64,000 nucleotides of DNA. Source: Candidatus Borrarchaeum weybense. GTDB lineage: Archaea > Asgardarchaeota > Sifarchaeia > Borrarchaeales > Borrarchaeaceae. Below are positions 10,665 to 43,047 of this stretch, one piece after another. Location: positions 662,508 through 726,507 of the forward strand of contig JAHQJS010000004.1 of NCBI GenBank assembly GCA_019057385.1. Reading direction: 5' to 3'. The first letter of the stretch is position 1. Every line of letters begins with the position of its first letter. A program made the translations under genes and the position numbers. The notes beneath the pieces were generated by a model. The model saw nothing but the letters and a program-made list of their open reading frames with translations, was not told where the DNA came from and did no database searches.

Positions 10665-10743
10665 GGCGATTTGGTGAACTTTGGCTAAGTTATCAAGAAC
10701 AAGAAATCATCTTTTTTTTCTTTCTTATTCCCTACCAAATCAC
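10665..10743 (-). promoter_or_regulatory. Structured 3'-UTR element, candidate SECIS, copy 1
   Basis: Near-identical to 11331-11407; GAUUUGGU/ACCAAAUC outer stem, GGGAAUAAGAAA/UUUCUUGUUCUU stem and AACUU/AAGUU hairpin, directly after a UGA-containing gene. Confidence 0.6.
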
Positions 10744-11216
10744 TTATTTAACTTTTCAAGCACTTCGAATAATGCTTTATTCTTCGGAATGTCGCTCATA
10801 GAATCACTGTAATAAGCATATTGAATGATTCCCTCTTTGTCGACTATAAGTAGCGCCGGCATGCGTCCTAATTTTCGAATTTTGAATTCCTGATGCAGTT
10901 TTTTGGCAACTTCCTTATTGTTATCGTAATATATCGGAAATTTTTCTTTCGCGTACTTTTGTTCCATCTTAATAGCATTTTCAAGCGTGTCTACCAAAAT
11001 TGGATAAATAATCGTGTCTAATTGCTCAAATTGCTCTTTATCTTTAGCAAAACTGCGAACTTGTGCTCTGCAATATGGTCAGTTGATGCTTCTAAGTAAA
11101 GCAACGATAACATTATTCTTTTCGATGAAGTCTTTGATGTTTACGTTTTCTTCCCTTGAATTAGGCAGAGAAAATTCTTCAATTTCCTTCCCTACCATTT
11201 CAAATTTATCCTTCAT
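10740..11216 (-). CDS. AhpC/TSA (peroxiredoxin-like) redoxin, probable selenoprotein with UxxC (U46-P-Y-C49), 158 aa
   Basis: Continuous frame MKDKFEMVGKEIEEFSLPNS...LLRSIN-TGA(11079-11081)-PYCRAQ joins the track ORF 10740..10997; PALLIVDKEGIIQYAY C-terminus. Confidence 0.88.
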
Positions 11217-11330: not shown

Positions 11331-11407
11331 GGCGATTTGGTCAACTTTGGCTAAGTTACGAGAACAAGAAATCATCCTTCTTTTCTTTCTTATTCCCTAC
11401 CAAATCA
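11331..11407 (-). promoter_or_regulatory. Structured 3'-UTR element, candidate SECIS, copy 2
   Basis: Near-identical to 10665-10743 and starts a few bases after the stop of the UxxU gene. Confidence 0.6.
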
Positions 11408-11411
11408 GTTA

Positions 11412-11891
11412 CTACTGTAGATTTCTAATTGCTTCTAACAATTCCTCAATTTTAGGATTGTCCTTTCCAGAATCACCATAGTAAGCATATTGTATGATTC
11501 CTTCTTTATCTACTATGAGGACGGCTGGCATTCGTCTATATTTGTCATCTACTAATTTAACTTCCTGGCCGAGTATTGTTAGTACTTCTTTCGATTCATC
11601 ATAGTACACAGGAAACTTACCTTTTGCATATTTTTGCTCCATTTCAATGGCATTTTTGAGTACATCCTCCGTAATTGCAATGATGATGGTATTTGACTGA
11701 TCAATCTCATCAAAATGATTAGCTAAGCTCTGGATGTGCTTTCTTCAATGTCCTCAGGCCAGTCCTTTTTTCAATGATATGACTATGTTTTTTCGTCCAA
11801 GAACTTCTTTAATATTTACCGTTTCGCCTCTCGAATTAGGCAGGGAAAACTCCTTGATGTGTTTTCCTATCATATTAAATTTATCTTTCAT
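11412..11891 (-). CDS. AhpC/TSA (peroxiredoxin-like) redoxin, probable double-Sec selenoprotein with UxxU (U46-G-H-U49), 159 aa
   Basis: MKDKFNMIGKHIKEFSLPNS...KKGLA-TGA(11754-56)-GGA-CAT-TGA(11745-47)-RKHIQSL continues in frame into track ORF 11412..11642; colinear with the neighbouring paralog. Confidence 0.83.
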
Positions 11892-11937: not shown

Positions 11938-12645
11938 TTATTTATATTCTTCGCCGATCCCTTCTGGAGGATATTTCGCTTTAACGCGTGGAATTGCGAT
12001 AAATTCTCTTATTTCAAGTCCTTCTTCTGGGTCAAAAAATTTCAAACTGGTGGAGGGTTTAATGACAACTGCAGTATCTAGACCCATAGAAGTGCCGGCA
12101 GCAACAACGACTTCCTCTTGGGATTTAATTACATTCGCGTCTGCAGCCATTATTGCAACTTCTACGCACACAATTAACCCACCAGAGATTAACCTCAGCG
12201 CTTCTGTCATCATTTGTTCGAAAGTAACTCCTTTAAATGTTCCAGCGATAGCTGTACCGACTCCATAAAAAGGAATAGTACCCCTAACAACTTTAATCCC
12301 TAACTCTTCAAGCTTATCCTGTATTTCATCAGTCATGTCCATTCTTACCTTCTTTAAGCCTTTTTGTTGCCATTCTCTTAGCTGTGTTTTCAGTTCAGGA
12401 ATATCACTCCAAGGACCATGTAAAGATTCTTTGACCGTCCAATATGCTCCAGGAGGAATGGTAACTGCGATAATTTCCAATTCTTTCCCCATAATCTCAT
12501 GGGCTTTTAAGGCACTATTTCCACGAAGGGTGGCAACAATCACGGTCTTAATGCCGAGTTCATTACTCCTCTCTTTGATTAATTCAAGTGTTCTTAAAGT
12601 GTTACCTGGACCGGGTCTTTCAAAGTATTCTATCCACTTTCGCAT
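11938..12645 (-). CDS. Archaeal protein with pyruvate kinase C-terminal-like domain (COG1751-type)
   Basis: YFERPGPGNT, VIVATLRG, VCVEVAIMAADA, GLDTAVVIKP. Confidence 0.8.
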   Translation of the reverse strand: MRKWIEYFERPGPGNTLRTLELIKERSNELGIKTVIVATLRGNSALKAHEIMGKELEIIAVTIPPGAYWTVKESLHGPWSDIPELKTQLREWQQKGLKKVRMDMTDEIQDKLEELGIKVVRGTIPFYGVGTAIAGTFKGVTFEQMMTEALRLISGGLIVCVEVAIMAADANVIKSQEEVVVAAGTSMGLDTAVVIKPSTSLKFFDPEEGLEIREFIAIPRVKAKYPPEGIGEEYK

Positions 12646-14045: not shown

Positions 14046-14219
14046 TAGTACAAAGGTAATTTGACCATCTTTCACAGTCTTGTTTTAAAGAAATGAACTT
14101 AAATTTAAAACCAGAAAGAGAGTATTTTTTCTATATTCAATTAAGAATGAAAATTTGATTATCAACTTAAAGGTAATAATTTTCGCGAGGTTTTGATTTT
14201 TAAGCTCTAAGGAGGACTG

Positions 14220-15824
14220 ATTGCTATTTCGTTTGAAAGCCCCATTGTAATCACTAATGGCACGCTAATTGATGGAACAGGTAAATCACCTATCGAGAAC
14301 AGCGTTGTTGTCACTTTTGGATCCAAAATCCTTGATGTTGGATCTGCCAATGAAATAAATGTTCCAAAGGATGCTAAAGTTATTGATGCCAATGGCAAGA
14401 CTGTAATACCTTGTTTTATTGATTCCCATTCGCATTTCTTTTTAATGGGACTAAAGGTGCTCACTGAACTTGATCTGTCAATGACTAAGTCTATCTCTGA
14501 GGTCATGGAGAAGGTCAAAACAAAGGTAAATGAGTTGCCTGATGGAACCTGGCTCAAAGGTCATGGTTGGGATGAAAGTAACTGGACCGAGAAAAGATAT
14601 CCCACAAAGAAGGATATGGATCCAGTATCTCCTAATCATCCAGTTGTTCTTACACCATATTACTGGCATATGGTTACAGTGAATAGCCGTGCTCTCGAAC
14701 TAGCTAAGATTAATAAACAAACTCCAGATCCTCCTGGAGGAAAGATTGAGAGAGATCTGACAGGTGAAGCCTCTGGAGTGTTGAAAGAGGAAGCAATGAA
14801 GTTAATCGATAAAGCACAACCGCCATTAACTGAAACACTAGCAATGAAGGCTATAGAGAAGGCATGTGAGATCGTGTTACAATGGGGCTGCGCGAGTATT
14901 CACGAGTTAGCCTCAACTTCAAGTGATTTAAACACCTATCAAAAAGCTTTTGAAAAAGACCTTCTAAAGGTACGCTCATATGTCTTACCGGCGACACGGT
15001 ATATTGAGAATCTGTTAGATGGACTGGATACTCTCGGTATCAGAACTGGCTTTGGTAATGAATTTGTCAAACTAGGCTCTGTGAAAATCTGGTTTGACGG
15101 CGCAATGGGATCACATACAGCTGTATTTTCTGAACCCTATGCCGATGATCCGACAACAAGTGGATTATATACGATTTCTCCTGAGCAACTCAACTTAACT
15201 GTAGCAAGGGCACATAAAATAGGAATGCAAGTTGCTATTCATGCCATTGGCGATAAGGCAATCGAGGAGGCTCTTGATGCTATAGAAATAGCGGTTAAGG
15301 ATGAACCAAGAAAAGATCATCGTCACAGGATCGAACACTGTGAAGTCATCAACGAAGATCAAATACGAAGGATGAAGCGGCTAGGAGTCATTGCTGCAGT
15401 ACAGCCCAATTTCGTTGGAGAGTGGGAACATCCTGGAGGAATGTATGAGCAACGATTAGGTTTAGAACGCCTGAAACTCTGCAATCCGTTTAGGAATCTA
15501 ATCGATGAGGGGATTACTGTTACATTTGGAACTGACTGTGGCTATTGTCCACCCTTTCCCTTTAATCCTTTGTATGGTCTATGGTCCGCTATATGCCATC
15601 CTATAGAGGCGCATCGCATCACATTAGAGGAAGCTGTGAAATGTTATACGCTTAATGGTGCATACGCTTCCTTTGAGGAAAAAATAAAGGGATCAATTGA
15701 ACCAGGAAAACTTGCCGATATAGCGATTCTATCGGAGGACTTGACCGCAATAGATGCAGAAAGAATCAAAGATGTAAAGGCAGATCTGACGATGGTAGGT
15801 GGAAAGATTCAATGGCAAGCGTAA
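14220..15824 (+). CDS. Amidohydrolase family 3 (YtcJ-like) protein
   Basis: Frame stays open upstream of the track start through VITNGTLIDG...FIDSHSH; HAIGD, RHRIEHC, GSIEPGKLAD; start CTG14217/ATT14220 after GGAGG. Confidence 0.88.
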   Translation: MAISFESPIVITNGTLIDGTGKSPIENSVVVTFGSKILDVGSANEINVPKDAKVIDANGKTVIPCFIDSHSHFFLMGLKVLTELDLSMTKSISEVMEKVKTKVNELPDGTWLKGHGWDESNWTEKRYPTKKDMDPVSPNHPVVLTPYYWHMVTVNSRALELAKINKQTPDPPGGKIERDLTGEASGVLKEEAMKLIDKAQPPLTETLAMKAIEKACEIVLQWGCASIHELASTSSDLNTYQKAFEKDLLKVRSYVLPATRYIENLLDGLDTLGIRTGFGNEFVKLGSVKIWFDGAMGSHTAVFSEPYADDPTTSGLYTISPEQLNLTVARAHKIGMQVAIHAIGDKAIEEALDAIEIAVKDEPRKDHRHRIEHCEVINEDQIRRMKRLGVIAAVQPNFVGEWEHPGGMYEQRLGLERLKLCNPFRNLIDEGITVTFGTDCGYCPPFPFNPLYGLWSAICHPIEAHRITLEEAVKCYTLNGAYASFEEKIKGSIEPGKLADIAILSEDLTAIDAERIKDVKADLTMVGGKIQWQA

Positions 15825-18809: not shown

Positions 18810-19565
18810 CTATCCAAGCATGTACAAGCCTGCAAATGGTCGATGAGATACTGGTTTCACCACAATGAATTCCCCGTCTAATAGTTTTTCCAATGGTATA
18901 CCAAACAAAGTTGAAAACTTCTGTAGAGTAGATTCTACTTTTTTCATATCTTGTTCTTTTGCCACATGCATTTTTGTTCCAACACCGAGTTGGTCTTCAG
19001 TTACTTTTCCTCGAATGAAGATTTTTCCGCCATGCATTCCCGTACCTACCCATTCACCCACTGGTGATCCATTTTTGCGGTTCATTCCTAGGACTATAAT
19101 TGTCCCACCTGCCATATATTCGCCACAGAAATCGCCAACGGATCCTCCTATGATGATTACTGGTTTCTTGTTGTGATATTCTTTCATATGGATGCCTATT
19201 CTATATCCTCCATTACCTTGAGCTAATATTTCTCCTCCACGCATTCCATAGCCCGCAATGTCTCCAATATTGCCATGAATGATGATTTCGCCAGCATCCA
19301 TAGTATTTCCTACGCCGTCTTGAGTGTTCCCAAAGATTTCTATCGTTGGACCTCGCATAAAGGCGGCAAGATCCTGTCCTGGAGTCCCAAAGACATCTAT
19401 TTTTAATTTAACGTCCTTTAATCCCGTACCGATATATCTCTGGCCGTTTACGTTTTCAAGTTTAAGATAGTCAACTTTATCGATCGTGGCAGCATGATAT
19501 ACTAATTCATTTAATTCTCGAAATGTTAATGACTCCGCATCAATAACACTTTCTTCTTTCTCCAT
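18810..19565 (-). CDS. Glutamate synthase GXGXG-domain subunit (cluster 1)
   Basis: GQRYIGTG, GNTMDAG, GEYMAGG, GTGMHGG repeats. Confidence 0.9.
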   Translation of the reverse strand: MEKEESVIDAESLTFRELNELVYHAATIDKVDYLKLENVNGQRYIGTGLKDVKLKIDVFGTPGQDLAAFMRGPTIEIFGNTQDGVGNTMDAGEIIIHGNIGDIAGYGMRGGEILAQGNGGYRIGIHMKEYHNKKPVIIIGGSVGDFCGEYMAGGTIIVLGMNRKNGSPVGEWVGTGMHGGKIFIRGKVTEDQLGVGTKMHVAKEQDMKKVESTLQKFSTLFGIPLEKLLDGEFIVVKPVSHRPFAGLYMLG

Positions 19566-19569
19566 ATTA

Positions 19570-21078
19570 TTACGCTCCAGCTGGTTTTACTCCGAGTACA
19601 TCGAGGGTAGGCTGTGTCAATTCAATCGCTCTTAAACGATCTCGATTGCTCCTTAGACTTTCGATGGAATTTAATCCGAGTGCTCCTAGTATCTCCTTTA
19701 GTTCATCATTCCATGCTCTAATTAGATTTGCAACTCTTTGCGCCGCTTCTTGAACTTTTAACCTCCTAGTCAAATCAGGACGTGTAGTTGCAATACCCCA
19801 TGGACATATCCCTCTATAGCACTGTTGACATACACGGCAACCCATAGCTATTAACACCGGAGTTCCAATTTGTATTGCATCCGCACCCAGCGCAATTGCC
19901 TTGGCAACTTCAGCAGCAGATCTAATTGAACCCATTGCGATGATTGAACCCCAATGCCTTATGCCTTCATCCCTCAATCTCTGATCTACTGAAGCAATGG
20001 CAGCCTCGATTGGTATACCCAAGTGGTCCCGTATCGCCGTAGGTGCTGCTCCTGTGCCTCCGGTTAATCCATCAAGAAGTATCCCGTCTGCTCCTGCACG
20101 CAAGATACCGCTTGAAATCGCTGCGGAATTATGAACCGCGGCAATTTTTACAAAGACAGGTTTCTTGTAGCGCGTAGCTTCCTTTAACGCATAAATGAGC
20201 TGTGATAAATCCTCTATTGAGTAAATGTCGTGATGTGGTGCAGGGCTGAGGGCGTCTGAACCTTTTGGAATCATTCTCGTTTGAGATATCGCCTGGCTAA
20301 CCTTTTCGCCTGGCAAATGGCCACCTATACCGGGCTTTGCACCTTGGCCAATTTTTATCGTCATTGATGCTGCGACATCTAGGTAATCTGCATGAACACC
20401 AAATCGTCCACTTGCCACTTCAACATCAATATAATCGCCGTATTCGTATAACTCGACGGGAAGCCCTCCTTCTCCTGAGCCAAATATAGTGCCTACCTCC
20501 TTCGCTGCCATCGCCAGTGCTTTAAATGCGTTGAAAGAAAGTGCACCATAACTCATATGACTGATCATAATCGGTGTTTCAAGTTCCAGTTGAGGTGAAA
20601 CGCTCGTCTTTAATTCTACATTATTGTCAATGTCATTAAATTCGAGTTTTTCAGGTTTTTTGCCAAGAAATGTTTTAATTTCAATGGGCTCCCGCAAAGG
20701 GTCGATTGATGGGTTAGTTACTTGGCAAGCATCTATTACTAAACGATCAAACAGTCGAGGGTAGGGAAGGGGTGTGCCAACTCCCGCAATTAACGCAGAA
20801 CCCGTATTGGCCTGCATCCATATGGCACGCTTAGTATCATCATTATATACGTAATGATAAGGAAGAGTTCCTGGATGCTTTTCAATGGTTATAGCCTGTT
20901 GTGGACACATAATGGCGCATCTTTGGCACGCAACACAATTCTCATCTATCGGTTTAGGTCTATCTGTATATGTCATGGCATCAAACGTGCAGTTAATCAT
21001 GCATCGTTTGCAATGTTTGCACTTTTCATAATCTACAGTTATTTTATACTCTGGTAATACACCCGCCATCACTATCAC
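19570..21078 (-). CDS. gltB: Archaeal glutamate synthase FMN-binding subunit with N-terminal 2x[4Fe-4S] (cluster 1)
   Basis: MSYGALS, GEGG, SGRFG, KIGQGAKPGIGGHLPG, CRVCQQCYRGICPWG. Confidence 0.93.
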   Translation of the reverse strand: MIVMAGVLPEYKITVDYEKCKHCKRCMINCTFDAMTYTDRPKPIDENCVACQRCAIMCPQQAITIEKHPGTLPYHYVYNDDTKRAIWMQANTGSALIAGVGTPLPYPRLFDRLVIDACQVTNPSIDPLREPIEIKTFLGKKPEKLEFNDIDNNVELKTSVSPQLELETPIMISHMSYGALSFNAFKALAMAAKEVGTIFGSGEGGLPVELYEYGDYIDVEVASGRFGVHADYLDVAASMTIKIGQGAKPGIGGHLPGEKVSQAISQTRMIPKGSDALSPAPHHDIYSIEDLSQLIYALKEATRYKKPVFVKIAAVHNSAAISSGILRAGADGILLDGLTGGTGAAPTAIRDHLGIPIEAAIASVDQRLRDEGIRHWGSIIAMGSIRSAAEVAKAIALGADAIQIGTPVLIAMGCRVCQQCYRGICPWGIATTRPDLTRRLKVQEAAQRVANLIRAWNDELKEILGALGLNSIESLRSNRDRLRAIELTQPTLDVLGVKPAGA

Positions 21079-41574: not shown

Positions 41575-42777
41575 CTAACATAAACTGAATAATAACCCTT
41601 TTCCATATGTTATCAACTCCACGTTGTTAATTGCGACACTGGGATTTTTTCCTTTAGGATTGTCCAACACAACTCGTTTTCCGTAACAATGAACTCCTTT
41701 TACTCTATATGTGTTATGATTATACTTGACAAGGTCATAGGGTTGCAACTGGTATCTCTGTCTCCTAATAGACGGTTTGAATCCCTTTCTATTCTTCTGT
41801 AGCGAACGGTTATTGCGCCTGATTTGTATCACCTCATACGGGCGGCAGCGTTCTTGATTGGTGCCGCCGGCAATGACGAATGCATCATTAATATGAGATT
41901 TTTCTAAACCTAACTTATTGCGGTGGTATTTAGTAACGTATCCGTAAGTATATTCTGCATCTAATTGCTCTACTAGTTTCCAACGAATGTTATTCAGACA
42001 GGCGGTTGCTTTAAGTGGCGTCTTTGCCTGCTGCTGGATGTGAGGGTAGCCGAACTCCTCGGCGGTCTTATCTCCTTTTTTAAGGTTACATTTCCTACAG
42101 GCGATCGTCAAATTCGACACTCGATCTGTCCCACCTCGGCTTTTCGGAACGATATGCTCGACTTCTAGGGGCACGCCCGTTTTACCACAATAGGCACATT
42201 TGCGTCCCCACTTATCTAACAGGTATTCTTTGACTTCGTAGCCCTGAAGTTCGCCCTGCTGGTACTCTACGCCTGTAATTTCCGGATGTTGCATTTTGTG
42301 AGCGTCGAAATTGCCCACCTCTATTTTTTTGAAGGGTATCGGTAGCATCGTTTCAAGTGTTTCACCTAATCGAATATGTGAGTCATGCCGATGTTGAATA
42401 CTGGGGGGTAACCAGCCTTCAGGTCGTGTTCGGTTATCAAATCGTGGTGGTCGATACCCTAATCTGCCTCTACGAGTGCTACGATACCTACGTTTTTCCG
42501 CTAGCTTGTTAGATACATCCTTGCGCAAGCGTAACGTGCAACTGATGACTTCTAATTTATCGGTCGTGGCACTAAATCCGAGTTTCATATATCCCGGGTC
42601 TACTCCCAGTTTAATCGATTGTGTCGCCTCTCCGGTGGCATAATTCAACTGAATGGTAAACGGGCATCGCTGAACAACTGTTGCCTTGCCTTCTTTTAAC
42701 AACTTTTTTCCTGTATGTTGTGTGGTCGGCATGAGGGGGTGCCCCCTCATGTTCAACACATAGATAGGTACTCTCAA
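41575..42777 (-). CDS. iscB: RNA-guided endonuclease IscB
   Basis: PLMP, RuvC-I GVDPG, Arg-rich bridge helix, RuvC-II E, HNH (CAYC...EHIVPKSRGG...CRKCN), RuvC-III SHINDA. Confidence 0.95.
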   Translation of the reverse strand: MRVPIYVLNMRGHPLMPTTQHTGKKLLKEGKATVVQRCPFTIQLNYATGEATQSIKLGVDPGYMKLGFSATTDKLEVISCTLRLRKDVSNKLAEKRRYRSTRRGRLGYRPPRFDNRTRPEGWLPPSIQHRHDSHIRLGETLETMLPIPFKKIEVGNFDAHKMQHPEITGVEYQQGELQGYEVKEYLLDKWGRKCAYCGKTGVPLEVEHIVPKSRGGTDRVSNLTIACRKCNLKKGDKTAEEFGYPHIQQQAKTPLKATACLNNIRWKLVEQLDAEYTYGYVTKYHRNKLGLEKSHINDAFVIAGGTNQERCRPYEVIQIRRNNRSLQKNRKGFKPSIRRQRYQLQPYDLVKYNHNTYRVKGVHCYGKRVVLDNPKGKNPSVAINNVELITYGKGLLFSLC

Positions 42778-42779
42778 GT

Positions 42780-43047
42780 CCTATCTCCTCCTTTAACGAG
42801 TGTTAAAGTCGGTTGGTTCTCTTCGCCAAGGTTATCAGTCAGTACTCTACGATGATCACTGAGAGTTTCCTCTCTGTTTAAACCACCGTTTACAGAGCAA
42901 GGGACTAGAGAAGCATCCCTTGGTGTGTTCTTTAACTCTCCTGATAACTTAGATACCGCCATATCCATGACCTCTCTTAGGCTAATCAACTAATTACTCT
43001 CAGGTCTCACGACCCAAGCCCCGACTCTTCAGGGTGGGGTAATTGAC
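42780..43047 (-). ncRNA. omegaRNA (HEARO-like) of the IscB element
   Basis: About 270 nt of non-coding sequence 5' of iscB, with the GTCAA..CCCC/GGGG hairpin, ACACCAAGGGATGCTTCTCTAGTCCCTTGCTCTGT and AACTTGGCGAAG segments. Confidence 0.8.

Follow-up and report, generated by a model that had tools for sequence, protein, structure and literature searches.

A probable double-selenocysteine Prx-like gene and a three-way-junction SECIS candidate in its 3'UTR in a Borrarchaeum-like Asgard archaeon

The double-TGA gene, its paralog and their surroundings

The window analyzed here is a stretch of 64,000 nucleotides, the minus strand of which harbors at positions 11412-11891 a reading frame of 159 codons with only two internal stops, both of them TGA, namely codon 46 (11754-11756, -) and codon 49 (11745-11747, -). 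Translated with selenocysteine (Sec, U) at these codons, which lie 9 nt apart, the frame reads ...KKGLA-U-G-H-U-RKHIQ... around the pair U46-G-H-U49 and terminates with TAG at 11412-11414, immediately followed by a TAA (window 11409-11414). The 159-residue translation contains no Cys codon and thus no cysteine outside the redox box, a feature noted for the Lokiarchaeota Prx-like (PrxL) protein as well. Within the Pfam AhpC-TSA/Redoxin domain the two TGAs occupy the two redox-box positions.

The gene is adjoined by a tandem single-Sec Prx-like paralog of 158 residues at 10740-11216 (-), U46-P-Y-C49, identified by translation and by Pfam matches to AhpC-TSA and Redoxin. Its redox box lies in the context ...LRSIN-U-P-Y-C-RAQ..., with codon 46 being TGA (11079-11081) and codon 49 being TGC, from which a single transversion leads to TGA. 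The paralog stops at a TGA (10740-10742), whose GA at the same time provides the first two bases of the P1 stem of the RNA element described below. The two proteins are colinear, with 54% identity and one two-residue gap. The initial annotation had located the two TGAs at positions equivalent to U46 and C49 of the paralog, in a frame otherwise intact and colinear with it, and both statements are borne out by translation and alignment.

Fragmentation of the gene by gene callers had likewise been expected and is indeed found: standard ORF calling splits it into pieces of 45 and 76 aa, and public protein collections hold it solely as pieces of 45, 76 and 107 aa. An Asgard catalogue from 2024 lists a Prx-like family including the entries 'Sifarchaeia_GCA_019057385_U' and '_U_2', Sec being written as X in its supplement (Huang et al. 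2024, PMC11227280). As judged from identical sequences, the first entry corresponds to residues 1-48 of the double-Sec protein and the second to the paralog. The former ends at the second TGA, giving a 48-residue fragment with one Sec; the full-length double-Sec reading is absent there. This reading is new here, and it corrects the truncated catalogue entry as well as the fragmentary public annotations.

Upstream, a co-oriented gene at 11938-12645 (-) encodes a stand-alone protein resembling the C-terminal domain of pyruvate kinase (Pfam PK_C, 5.2e-9). A scan for sigma-70 promoters and terminators is uninformative for an archaeon. With respect to stop codons, comparison of loci L026, L027 and L146-L149 with window positions 11409-11414 gives UAG in all five UxxU lineages and UGA within the P1 stem in the tandem UxxC copies. 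Decoding of UAG as pyrrolysine and a Prx selenoprotein have been reported for Sifarchaeia (Sun et al. 2021), and ARAGORN calls a tRNA-Pyl in the genome at C7:143743-143811 (contigs are abbreviated by C and their number). Elsewhere in the window, an Amidohydro_3 match (381 bits) on the plus strand at 14211-15821 begins at residue 56 when read from 14211, so that the domain starts ahead of the ORF-called ATG at 14445. A HEARO/omega-type RNA (Rfam RF02033, 124.9 bits) is found at 42812-43047 (-), directly upstream of a 400-aa protein with RRXRR and HNH domains (41575-42777, -); together they form, at 41575-43047 (-), an Asgard archaeal locus for an IscB-like RNA-guided nuclease.

Selenocysteine decoding in the host and selection on both sides of the UGA codons

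The window lies on contig 4 of a metagenome-assembled genome of 4.18 Mb in eight contigs with an estimated contamination of 7%. Among named relatives, Candidatus Borrarchaeum yapensis and a further Borrarchaeota MAG come closest. The initial annotation had referred to the Sec machinery of Lokiarchaeota-type Asgards. The machinery is present, whereas the organism is not a Lokiarchaeote and instead belongs to the Borrarchaeum-like Sifarchaeia/Borrarchaeales. On contig C1, a tight intron-free run of six tRNA genes (e.g. 19435-19896) coincides with a higher GC content (0.39); this contig looks bacterial, consistent with the estimated contamination.

All components proposed for a check of the genome, i.e. 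tRNA-Sec, SelD, PSTK, SepSecS and SelB, were found. SepSecS is matched with 410 bits, SelD with 250 bits and itself carrying one in-frame TGA, and the genes for PSTK and SelB, the latter from position 282919 onward, are neighbors on contig 7. With an nhmmer profile derived from five Asgard tRNA-Sec genes, tRNA-Sec(UCA) was located at C6:464916-465039 (-) with E=2e-7. Its acceptor stem of 9 bp is perfect, its anticodon loop reads CUUCAAA, and its T-loop contains an insert of about 30 nt, probably an intron, after removal of which ARAGORN calls the gene as tRNA-SeC(tca). Because of this insert, the gene was missed in the genome by Rfam RF01852, by ARAGORN with or without introns and by two home-made pattern scans. 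RF01852 also gives no tRNA-Sec above cut-off in complete Freyarchaeia and Atabeyarchaeia genomes bearing UGA-containing PrxL genes; hidden tRNA-Sec genes of a similar type may therefore be common in such lineages. A search of the Sec-machinery loci and the window with Rfam returned no SECIS or tRNA-Sec family.

Sec decoding is clearly in use in this genome, since it encodes a vhuD (vhuD/mvhD) homolog with two in-frame TGAs (C6:186006-186371) followed at C6:186407 by a textbook lokiSECIS, AUGA-AACUCAUGGG-AAAACUUAG-UUCAUGAGUU-AA, with stem arms of 10 bp. Two further genes with an FlpD domain, at C4:638628-638996 and C6:371753-372118, each have a single in-frame TGA.

In whole-genome searches, 60 relatives yielded 15 homologs, every one of which has TGA at position 46. 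Two-TGA forms among these relatives are confined to the window's own genus, with UGHU in genomes G000 and G004 and UANU in G001, and metagenome contigs add double-TGA loci reading UGQU (87% identity), UAHU (85%) and UANU. In a set of 80 clade loci, taken from one genome per species, Sec occupies position 46 with a single exception, whereas position 49 is Cys in 63 and Ala, Ser or Thr in 17, with Sec found in the Borrarchaeum lineage only. Hence the homologs offer Sec at the first and Cys, Sec or Ala/Ser/Thr at the second redox-box position, and Trp at neither, a residue that the initial annotation had named as speaking against its reading. That one or both TGAs are assembly or sequencing errors for TGC or TGT might be suspected in a metagenome-assembled genome with 7% estimated contamination, but has virtually no chance of being correct: the pair recurs identically, with different flanking codons, in independent assemblies, namely the genomes of two other species (G004, G001) and four JGI metagenome contigs.

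Both TGAs are retained in five orthologous lineages, while the flanking residues as well as the residues between them (GH, GQ, AH, AN) vary, resulting in a consensus redox box U-[GA]-[HQN]-U for the UxxU lineages. The match of the GH spacer to the CGHC motif of protein disulfide isomerases (PDI), to which the initial annotation had drawn attention, therefore carries little weight, given that orthologs read GQ, AH or AN. The PDI-like spacer is new here, and it is not conserved.

The proposed comparison of dN/dS on either side of the TGAs revealed purifying selection on both sides. For codons 50-159 the Nei-Gojobori ratio is 0.10-0.19 in all nine computable pairs, including those with dS >1.6, and the fold-critical residues R120, P122, D128, G131 and Y135 downstream of the TGAs are invariant, which shows that the full-length product is under selection. 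These values bear directly on the view that the gene is a decaying duplicate whose second TGA truly ends translation prematurely, so that a peptide of about 48 residues or nothing at all is made. Such decay would fit the published sequence for this assembly, which ends '...GLAXGH', the fragments delivered by gene callers and the presence of a functional single-Sec paralog next to it. It is nevertheless very improbable in view of the low dN/dS and the invariant residues past the second TGA, the absence of further stops and of frameshifts from five lineages between which dS reaches about 2, and the conserved 3'UTR element that the double-Sec gene has of its own.

A related possibility is that only UGA46 is efficiently read as Sec, UGA49 mostly leading to termination or being decoded with low efficiency, such that full-length UxxU protein would be a minor, selenium-dependent product in a form of attenuation. 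With one element serving two UGAs at a distance of 9 nt, inefficiency should indeed compound; however, SelL and Lokiarchaeota PrxL.1 likewise combine one SECIS with two nearby UGAs (PMC4989117), and the strong purifying selection on the C-terminal 110 codons shows that the full-length product matters. Attenuation at UGA49 is accordingly considered improbable, if slightly less so than decay of the gene.

Outside the UxxU lineages, a well-supported PrxL sub-clade keeps Sec46 and reads UPYA, UPYS or UPYT, thus possessing one Sec and no resolving residue at position 49 (loci L074, L077, L079, L081, L089, L092, L098, L100, L103, L110, L111, L113, L124, L126, L127 and L133). The PrxL loci L068 and L092, which have the Asgard-type 3'UTR element, stem from MAG records labeled Deferrimicrobium and Nanopelagicaceae and are most likely mis-binned Asgard contigs. 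L068 also bears a tandem paralog devoid of Sec (D46...C49).

A three-way junction in the 3'UTR

Starting 0-5 nt past the stop codons of the double-Sec gene and its paralog, a block of about 75 nt is 93% identical between the two, as compared to 64% DNA identity between the coding sequences. The block folds into a three-way junction, presumed to be the SECIS, which comprises positions 11334-11406 (-) in the 3'UTR of the double-Sec gene. Stem P1 (GAUUUGGU/ACCAAAUC) is formed by 11399-11406 with 11334-11341 (-), and P2 by 11386-11397 with 11360-11371 (-), enclosing the loop GAAAAGAAGGAUGA at 11372-11385. P3, AACUU-AGCCA-AAGUU, pairs 11353-11357 with 11343-11347 (-) around the loop AGCCA. The second copy, at 10668-10741 (-), is located directly 3' of the paralog.

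The junction fold was evaluated on 59 homologous 3'UTRs, which stem from many lineages of Asgard archaea and among them from the cultured Lokiarchaeum ossiferum and Promethearchaeum syntrophicum. RNAalifold recovered P2 alone from the MAFFT alignment, and the full junction was specified by hand and then tested: 84.6% of cells pair as opposed to 76.0% in shuffles, none of 500 shuffles reaching the observed value, compensatory changes occur in 21 of the 25 pairs, and the covariation score is 0.308 compared to at most 0.128 for slid controls. The corresponding covariance model matches only the two PrxL 3'UTRs in the window, with 76.6 bits behind the double-Sec gene and 75.5 bits behind the paralog; it gives no match behind SelD, vhuD, the other PrxL clade or the Sec-less paralog of L068, for which the 3' flank spans only 37 nt. 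A sequence profile likewise finds two copies in the 4.18-Mb genome, both directly behind PrxL genes. In every Sec-encoding clade member examined the element begins 0-15 nt past the stop codon, the distance being 5 nt in the double-Sec gene.

In the published lokiSECIS, a 9-bp stem with an 11-nt loop is flanked by AUGA on its 5' side and by GA on its 3' side. In the catalogue from 2024, most SECIS elements of prxL genes are reported to be of the type I eSECIS-like form (Huang et al. 2024, PMC11227280). The element at 11334-11406 differs from both patterns in that it is devoid of the AUGA...GA kink-turn quartet: the flanks of P2 are GGUA and GU here and are non-conserved bases across the 59 sequences. 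P2 itself, on the other hand, is a 9-12-bp arm with an A-rich loop, [G/A]AAAA...AUGA(G), close to the stop codon, and thus has the stem and loop of a lokiSECIS-type hairpin; this long arm resembles the lokiSECIS hairpin, yet is situated in a junction rather than on a kink-turn base. A canonical lokiSECIS, AUGA-AGCAUAGGU-AAAAAAAUGAG-ACAUAUGCA-GA, is found behind L145, a Lokiarchaeial PrxL gene from the other clade. Since its apical loop AAAAAAAUGAG is essentially the P2 loop of the Lokiarchaeial members of the present clade (AAUAAAAAUGAG), we infer that P2 is the SECIS hairpin and that the element, to judge by its position, its conservation and this loop similarity, may function as a SECIS. Its hairpin loop is conserved, whereas the kink-turn-like base linking the lokiSECIS to eukaryotic SECIS elements is absent, and the element thereby bears on Sec-codon recognition in Asgard archaea, the closest relatives of eukaryotes.

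The junction could also be a different cis-element, such as a terminator, a stability element or a regulatory RNA, with recoding depending on something else. This would account for the missing basal AUGA_GA quartet of published Asgard SECIS models and for the use of canonical lokiSECIS elsewhere in the genome, e.g. behind the two-TGA vhuD at C6:186407. It is unlikely, though, because neither PrxL 3'UTR contains another conserved structure or an AUGA-stem-GA element, because the junction begins within 15 nt of the stop in all Sec-encoding members examined and occurs nowhere else in the genome beyond the two PrxL UTRs, and because its P2 loop matches that of the canonical lokiSECIS. No description of a three-way-junction SECIS variant lacking the AUGA_GA quartet was found in the literature examined.

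Two alternative descriptions of the element were discarded. A literal lokiSECIS fold, AUGA-UUUCUUGUU-(11 nt)-GCCAAAGUU-GA, has the 9+11+9 nt spacing, but pairs at 5 of 9 positions only, covariation is not seen, and neither the paralog nor most of the homologs have the 3' GA. A 'circularly permuted SECIS / K-loop', in which GA...AUGA closes the P2 loop, was dropped on the grounds that the canonical lokiSECIS of L145 possesses an A-rich...AUGAG loop too.

Variants of the element occur within the family. The P2 loop of the UPYA/UPYS/UPYT sub-clade ends in UUGA. The 3'UTR of L150 (metagenome contig Ga0164315_10181457), a UPYC member with 45% identity, is without the GAUUUGG junction and begins UGAAAGAAAUGAAUCAUUAUGA, possibly representing another SECIS form within the PrxL family.

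Fold, proposed redox chemistry and probable origin of the UxxU box

Pfam assigns the double-Sec protein to AhpC-TSA (PF00578; 1.4e-16, 61 bits) and Redoxin (1.7e-14). An AlphaFold2 model calculated from a 14-sequence alignment has a pLDDT of 94.5 and places residue 46 immediately N-terminal to the helix spanning residues 47-58. The closest solved folds are S. solfataricus Bcp1 (3drn) and Bcp4 (3hjp), with TM scores of 0.84-0.86 and a sequence identity of about 18%. When the profile is aligned to PDB, Sec46 coincides with the Thr of the Prx TxxC motif and Sec49, whose counterpart in the paralog is Cys49 (TGC), with the peroxidatic Cys of Bcp-type peroxiredoxins. Pro122, part of a conserved RMPA motif, stands in place of the Prx Arg, and Arg42 in place of the Prx Pro. 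A C/UxxC/U box in place of T/SxxC within an AhpC-TSA/Redoxin domain, as is characteristic of PrxL proteins, is thus present, and the canonical Bcp/PrxQ signature Pxxx(T/S)xxC with its conserved Arg is not kept.

It is very likely, albeit not certain, that the gene is a functional, mis-annotated double-Sec selenoprotein gene encoding a 159-residue PrxL oxidoreductase with a Bcp-type thioredoxin fold. The initial annotation had proposed a full-length double-Sec thioredoxin-fold redoxin, for which the Sec machinery, the homologs, the purifying selection and the conserved 3'UTR structure now provide support.

Bcp/PrxQ peroxiredoxins share the fold of the double-Sec protein, but their catalytic signature has been lost in the latter, and Prx-type peroxidase chemistry is therefore unexpected. 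As far as can be told from sequence, the protein is a Prx-like thiol/selenol oxidoreductase and not a canonical peroxidase; the missing Prx Thr and Arg and the cis-Pro-type 'RMPA' motif, taken together, point to disulfide or selenylsulfide exchange in preference to direct reduction of peroxide. Contrary to PDI, the double-Sec protein is a single Bcp-like domain without the PDI a/b architecture and without a conserved GH spacer. The UPYA/UPYS/UPYT sub-clade, which has no second redox residue, suggests that Sec46 would be the essential nucleophile and position 49 the resolving partner.

In the mechanism proposed here, both UGA codons would be recoded by Sec-tRNA(Sec) and SelB, directed by the one three-way junction that begins 5 nt past the stop codon. 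By analogy with known UxxU proteins, Sec46 and Sec49 may form a reversible diselenide, such that the enzyme would cycle between the diselenol and an intramolecular diselenide, with U46 at the N-terminus of helix alpha-1 presumably acting as the attacking residue.

To our knowledge, nature offers few diselenide (UxxU) proteins, and no archaeal representative has been characterized biochemically. SelL (Shchedrina et al. 2007, as cited in PMC4989117) reportedly combines the UxxU motif with a Prx-like domain of thioredoxin fold. In Lokiarchaeota PrxL.1, likewise a Prx-like protein, Sec occupies both redox-box positions (UxxU) and Cys is absent elsewhere; a diselenide has been proposed for it, and a single 3'UTR SECIS serves its two UGAs, which lie two codons apart (Mariotti et al. 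2016, PMC4989117). UxxU is also found in 'Prx-like 2' proteins of marine bacteria, with two adjacent UGAs (Zhang and Gladyshev 2008, PMC2398784), and a review from 2026 tabulates Prx-like proteins as 'UxxC, UxxU; 1~2 Sec'. While SelL and the bacterial proteins are likened to the double-Sec protein by motif and fold, they come from eukaryotic or bacterial lineages and employ other SECIS types. The initial appeal to the rarity of UxxU overlooked PrxL.1 as a direct precedent (PMC4989117) and thus rated the novelty too high: this kind of protein is already published and the finding in this respect is incremental, the three-way-junction SECIS candidate being the more unusual item.

PrxL.1, although an Asgard UxxU Prx-like protein without other Cys, like the double-Sec protein, belongs to a different PrxL clade. 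A 'WXHHX' sequence published from Lokiarchaeia shares 63% identity with the L145 clade, as against only 29% over 41 residues with the double-Sec protein, and the Lokiarchaeial UxxU clade carries the canonical AUGA-9bp-11nt-9bp-GA lokiSECIS where the double-Sec gene has the three-way junction. Because the published Lokiarchaeial double-Sec sequences belong to this other clade, the UxxU state has probably arisen twice in Asgard PrxL, and the Borrarchaeum-lineage form most likely originated independently of the Lokiarchaeia PrxL.1 clade. New here, accordingly, would be UxxU in a different PrxL clade, that of Borrarchaeales/Sifarchaeia and not of Lokiarchaeia, probably of independent origin, by which the gene adds a second archaeal UxxU lineage. 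The combined claim of a second independent diselenide redox box in Asgard Prx-like proteins, decoded via a three-way-junction SECIS variant without the AUGA_GA quartet, is put forward tentatively, with slightly less than even confidence. If true, the UxxU/UxxC tandem pair under like elements would constitute a natural matched comparison of a diselenide with a selenylsulfide, and could reveal the minimal requirements of an Asgard SECIS.

A maximum-likelihood tree separates the UxxU trio from 81 UxxC/A sequences by a branch with 100/99 support. Rooting with the other PrxL clade introduces a very long outgroup branch (9.76), making the root unreliable with respect to the order of duplication and Cys-to-Sec exchange. 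Lineage-specific features of the UTR element are common to the UxxU and UxxC copies, which favors duplication within Borrarchaeales, or gene conversion of the UTR; the UxxU copy would most likely have arisen by duplication followed by the single TGC-to-TGA change at codon 49.
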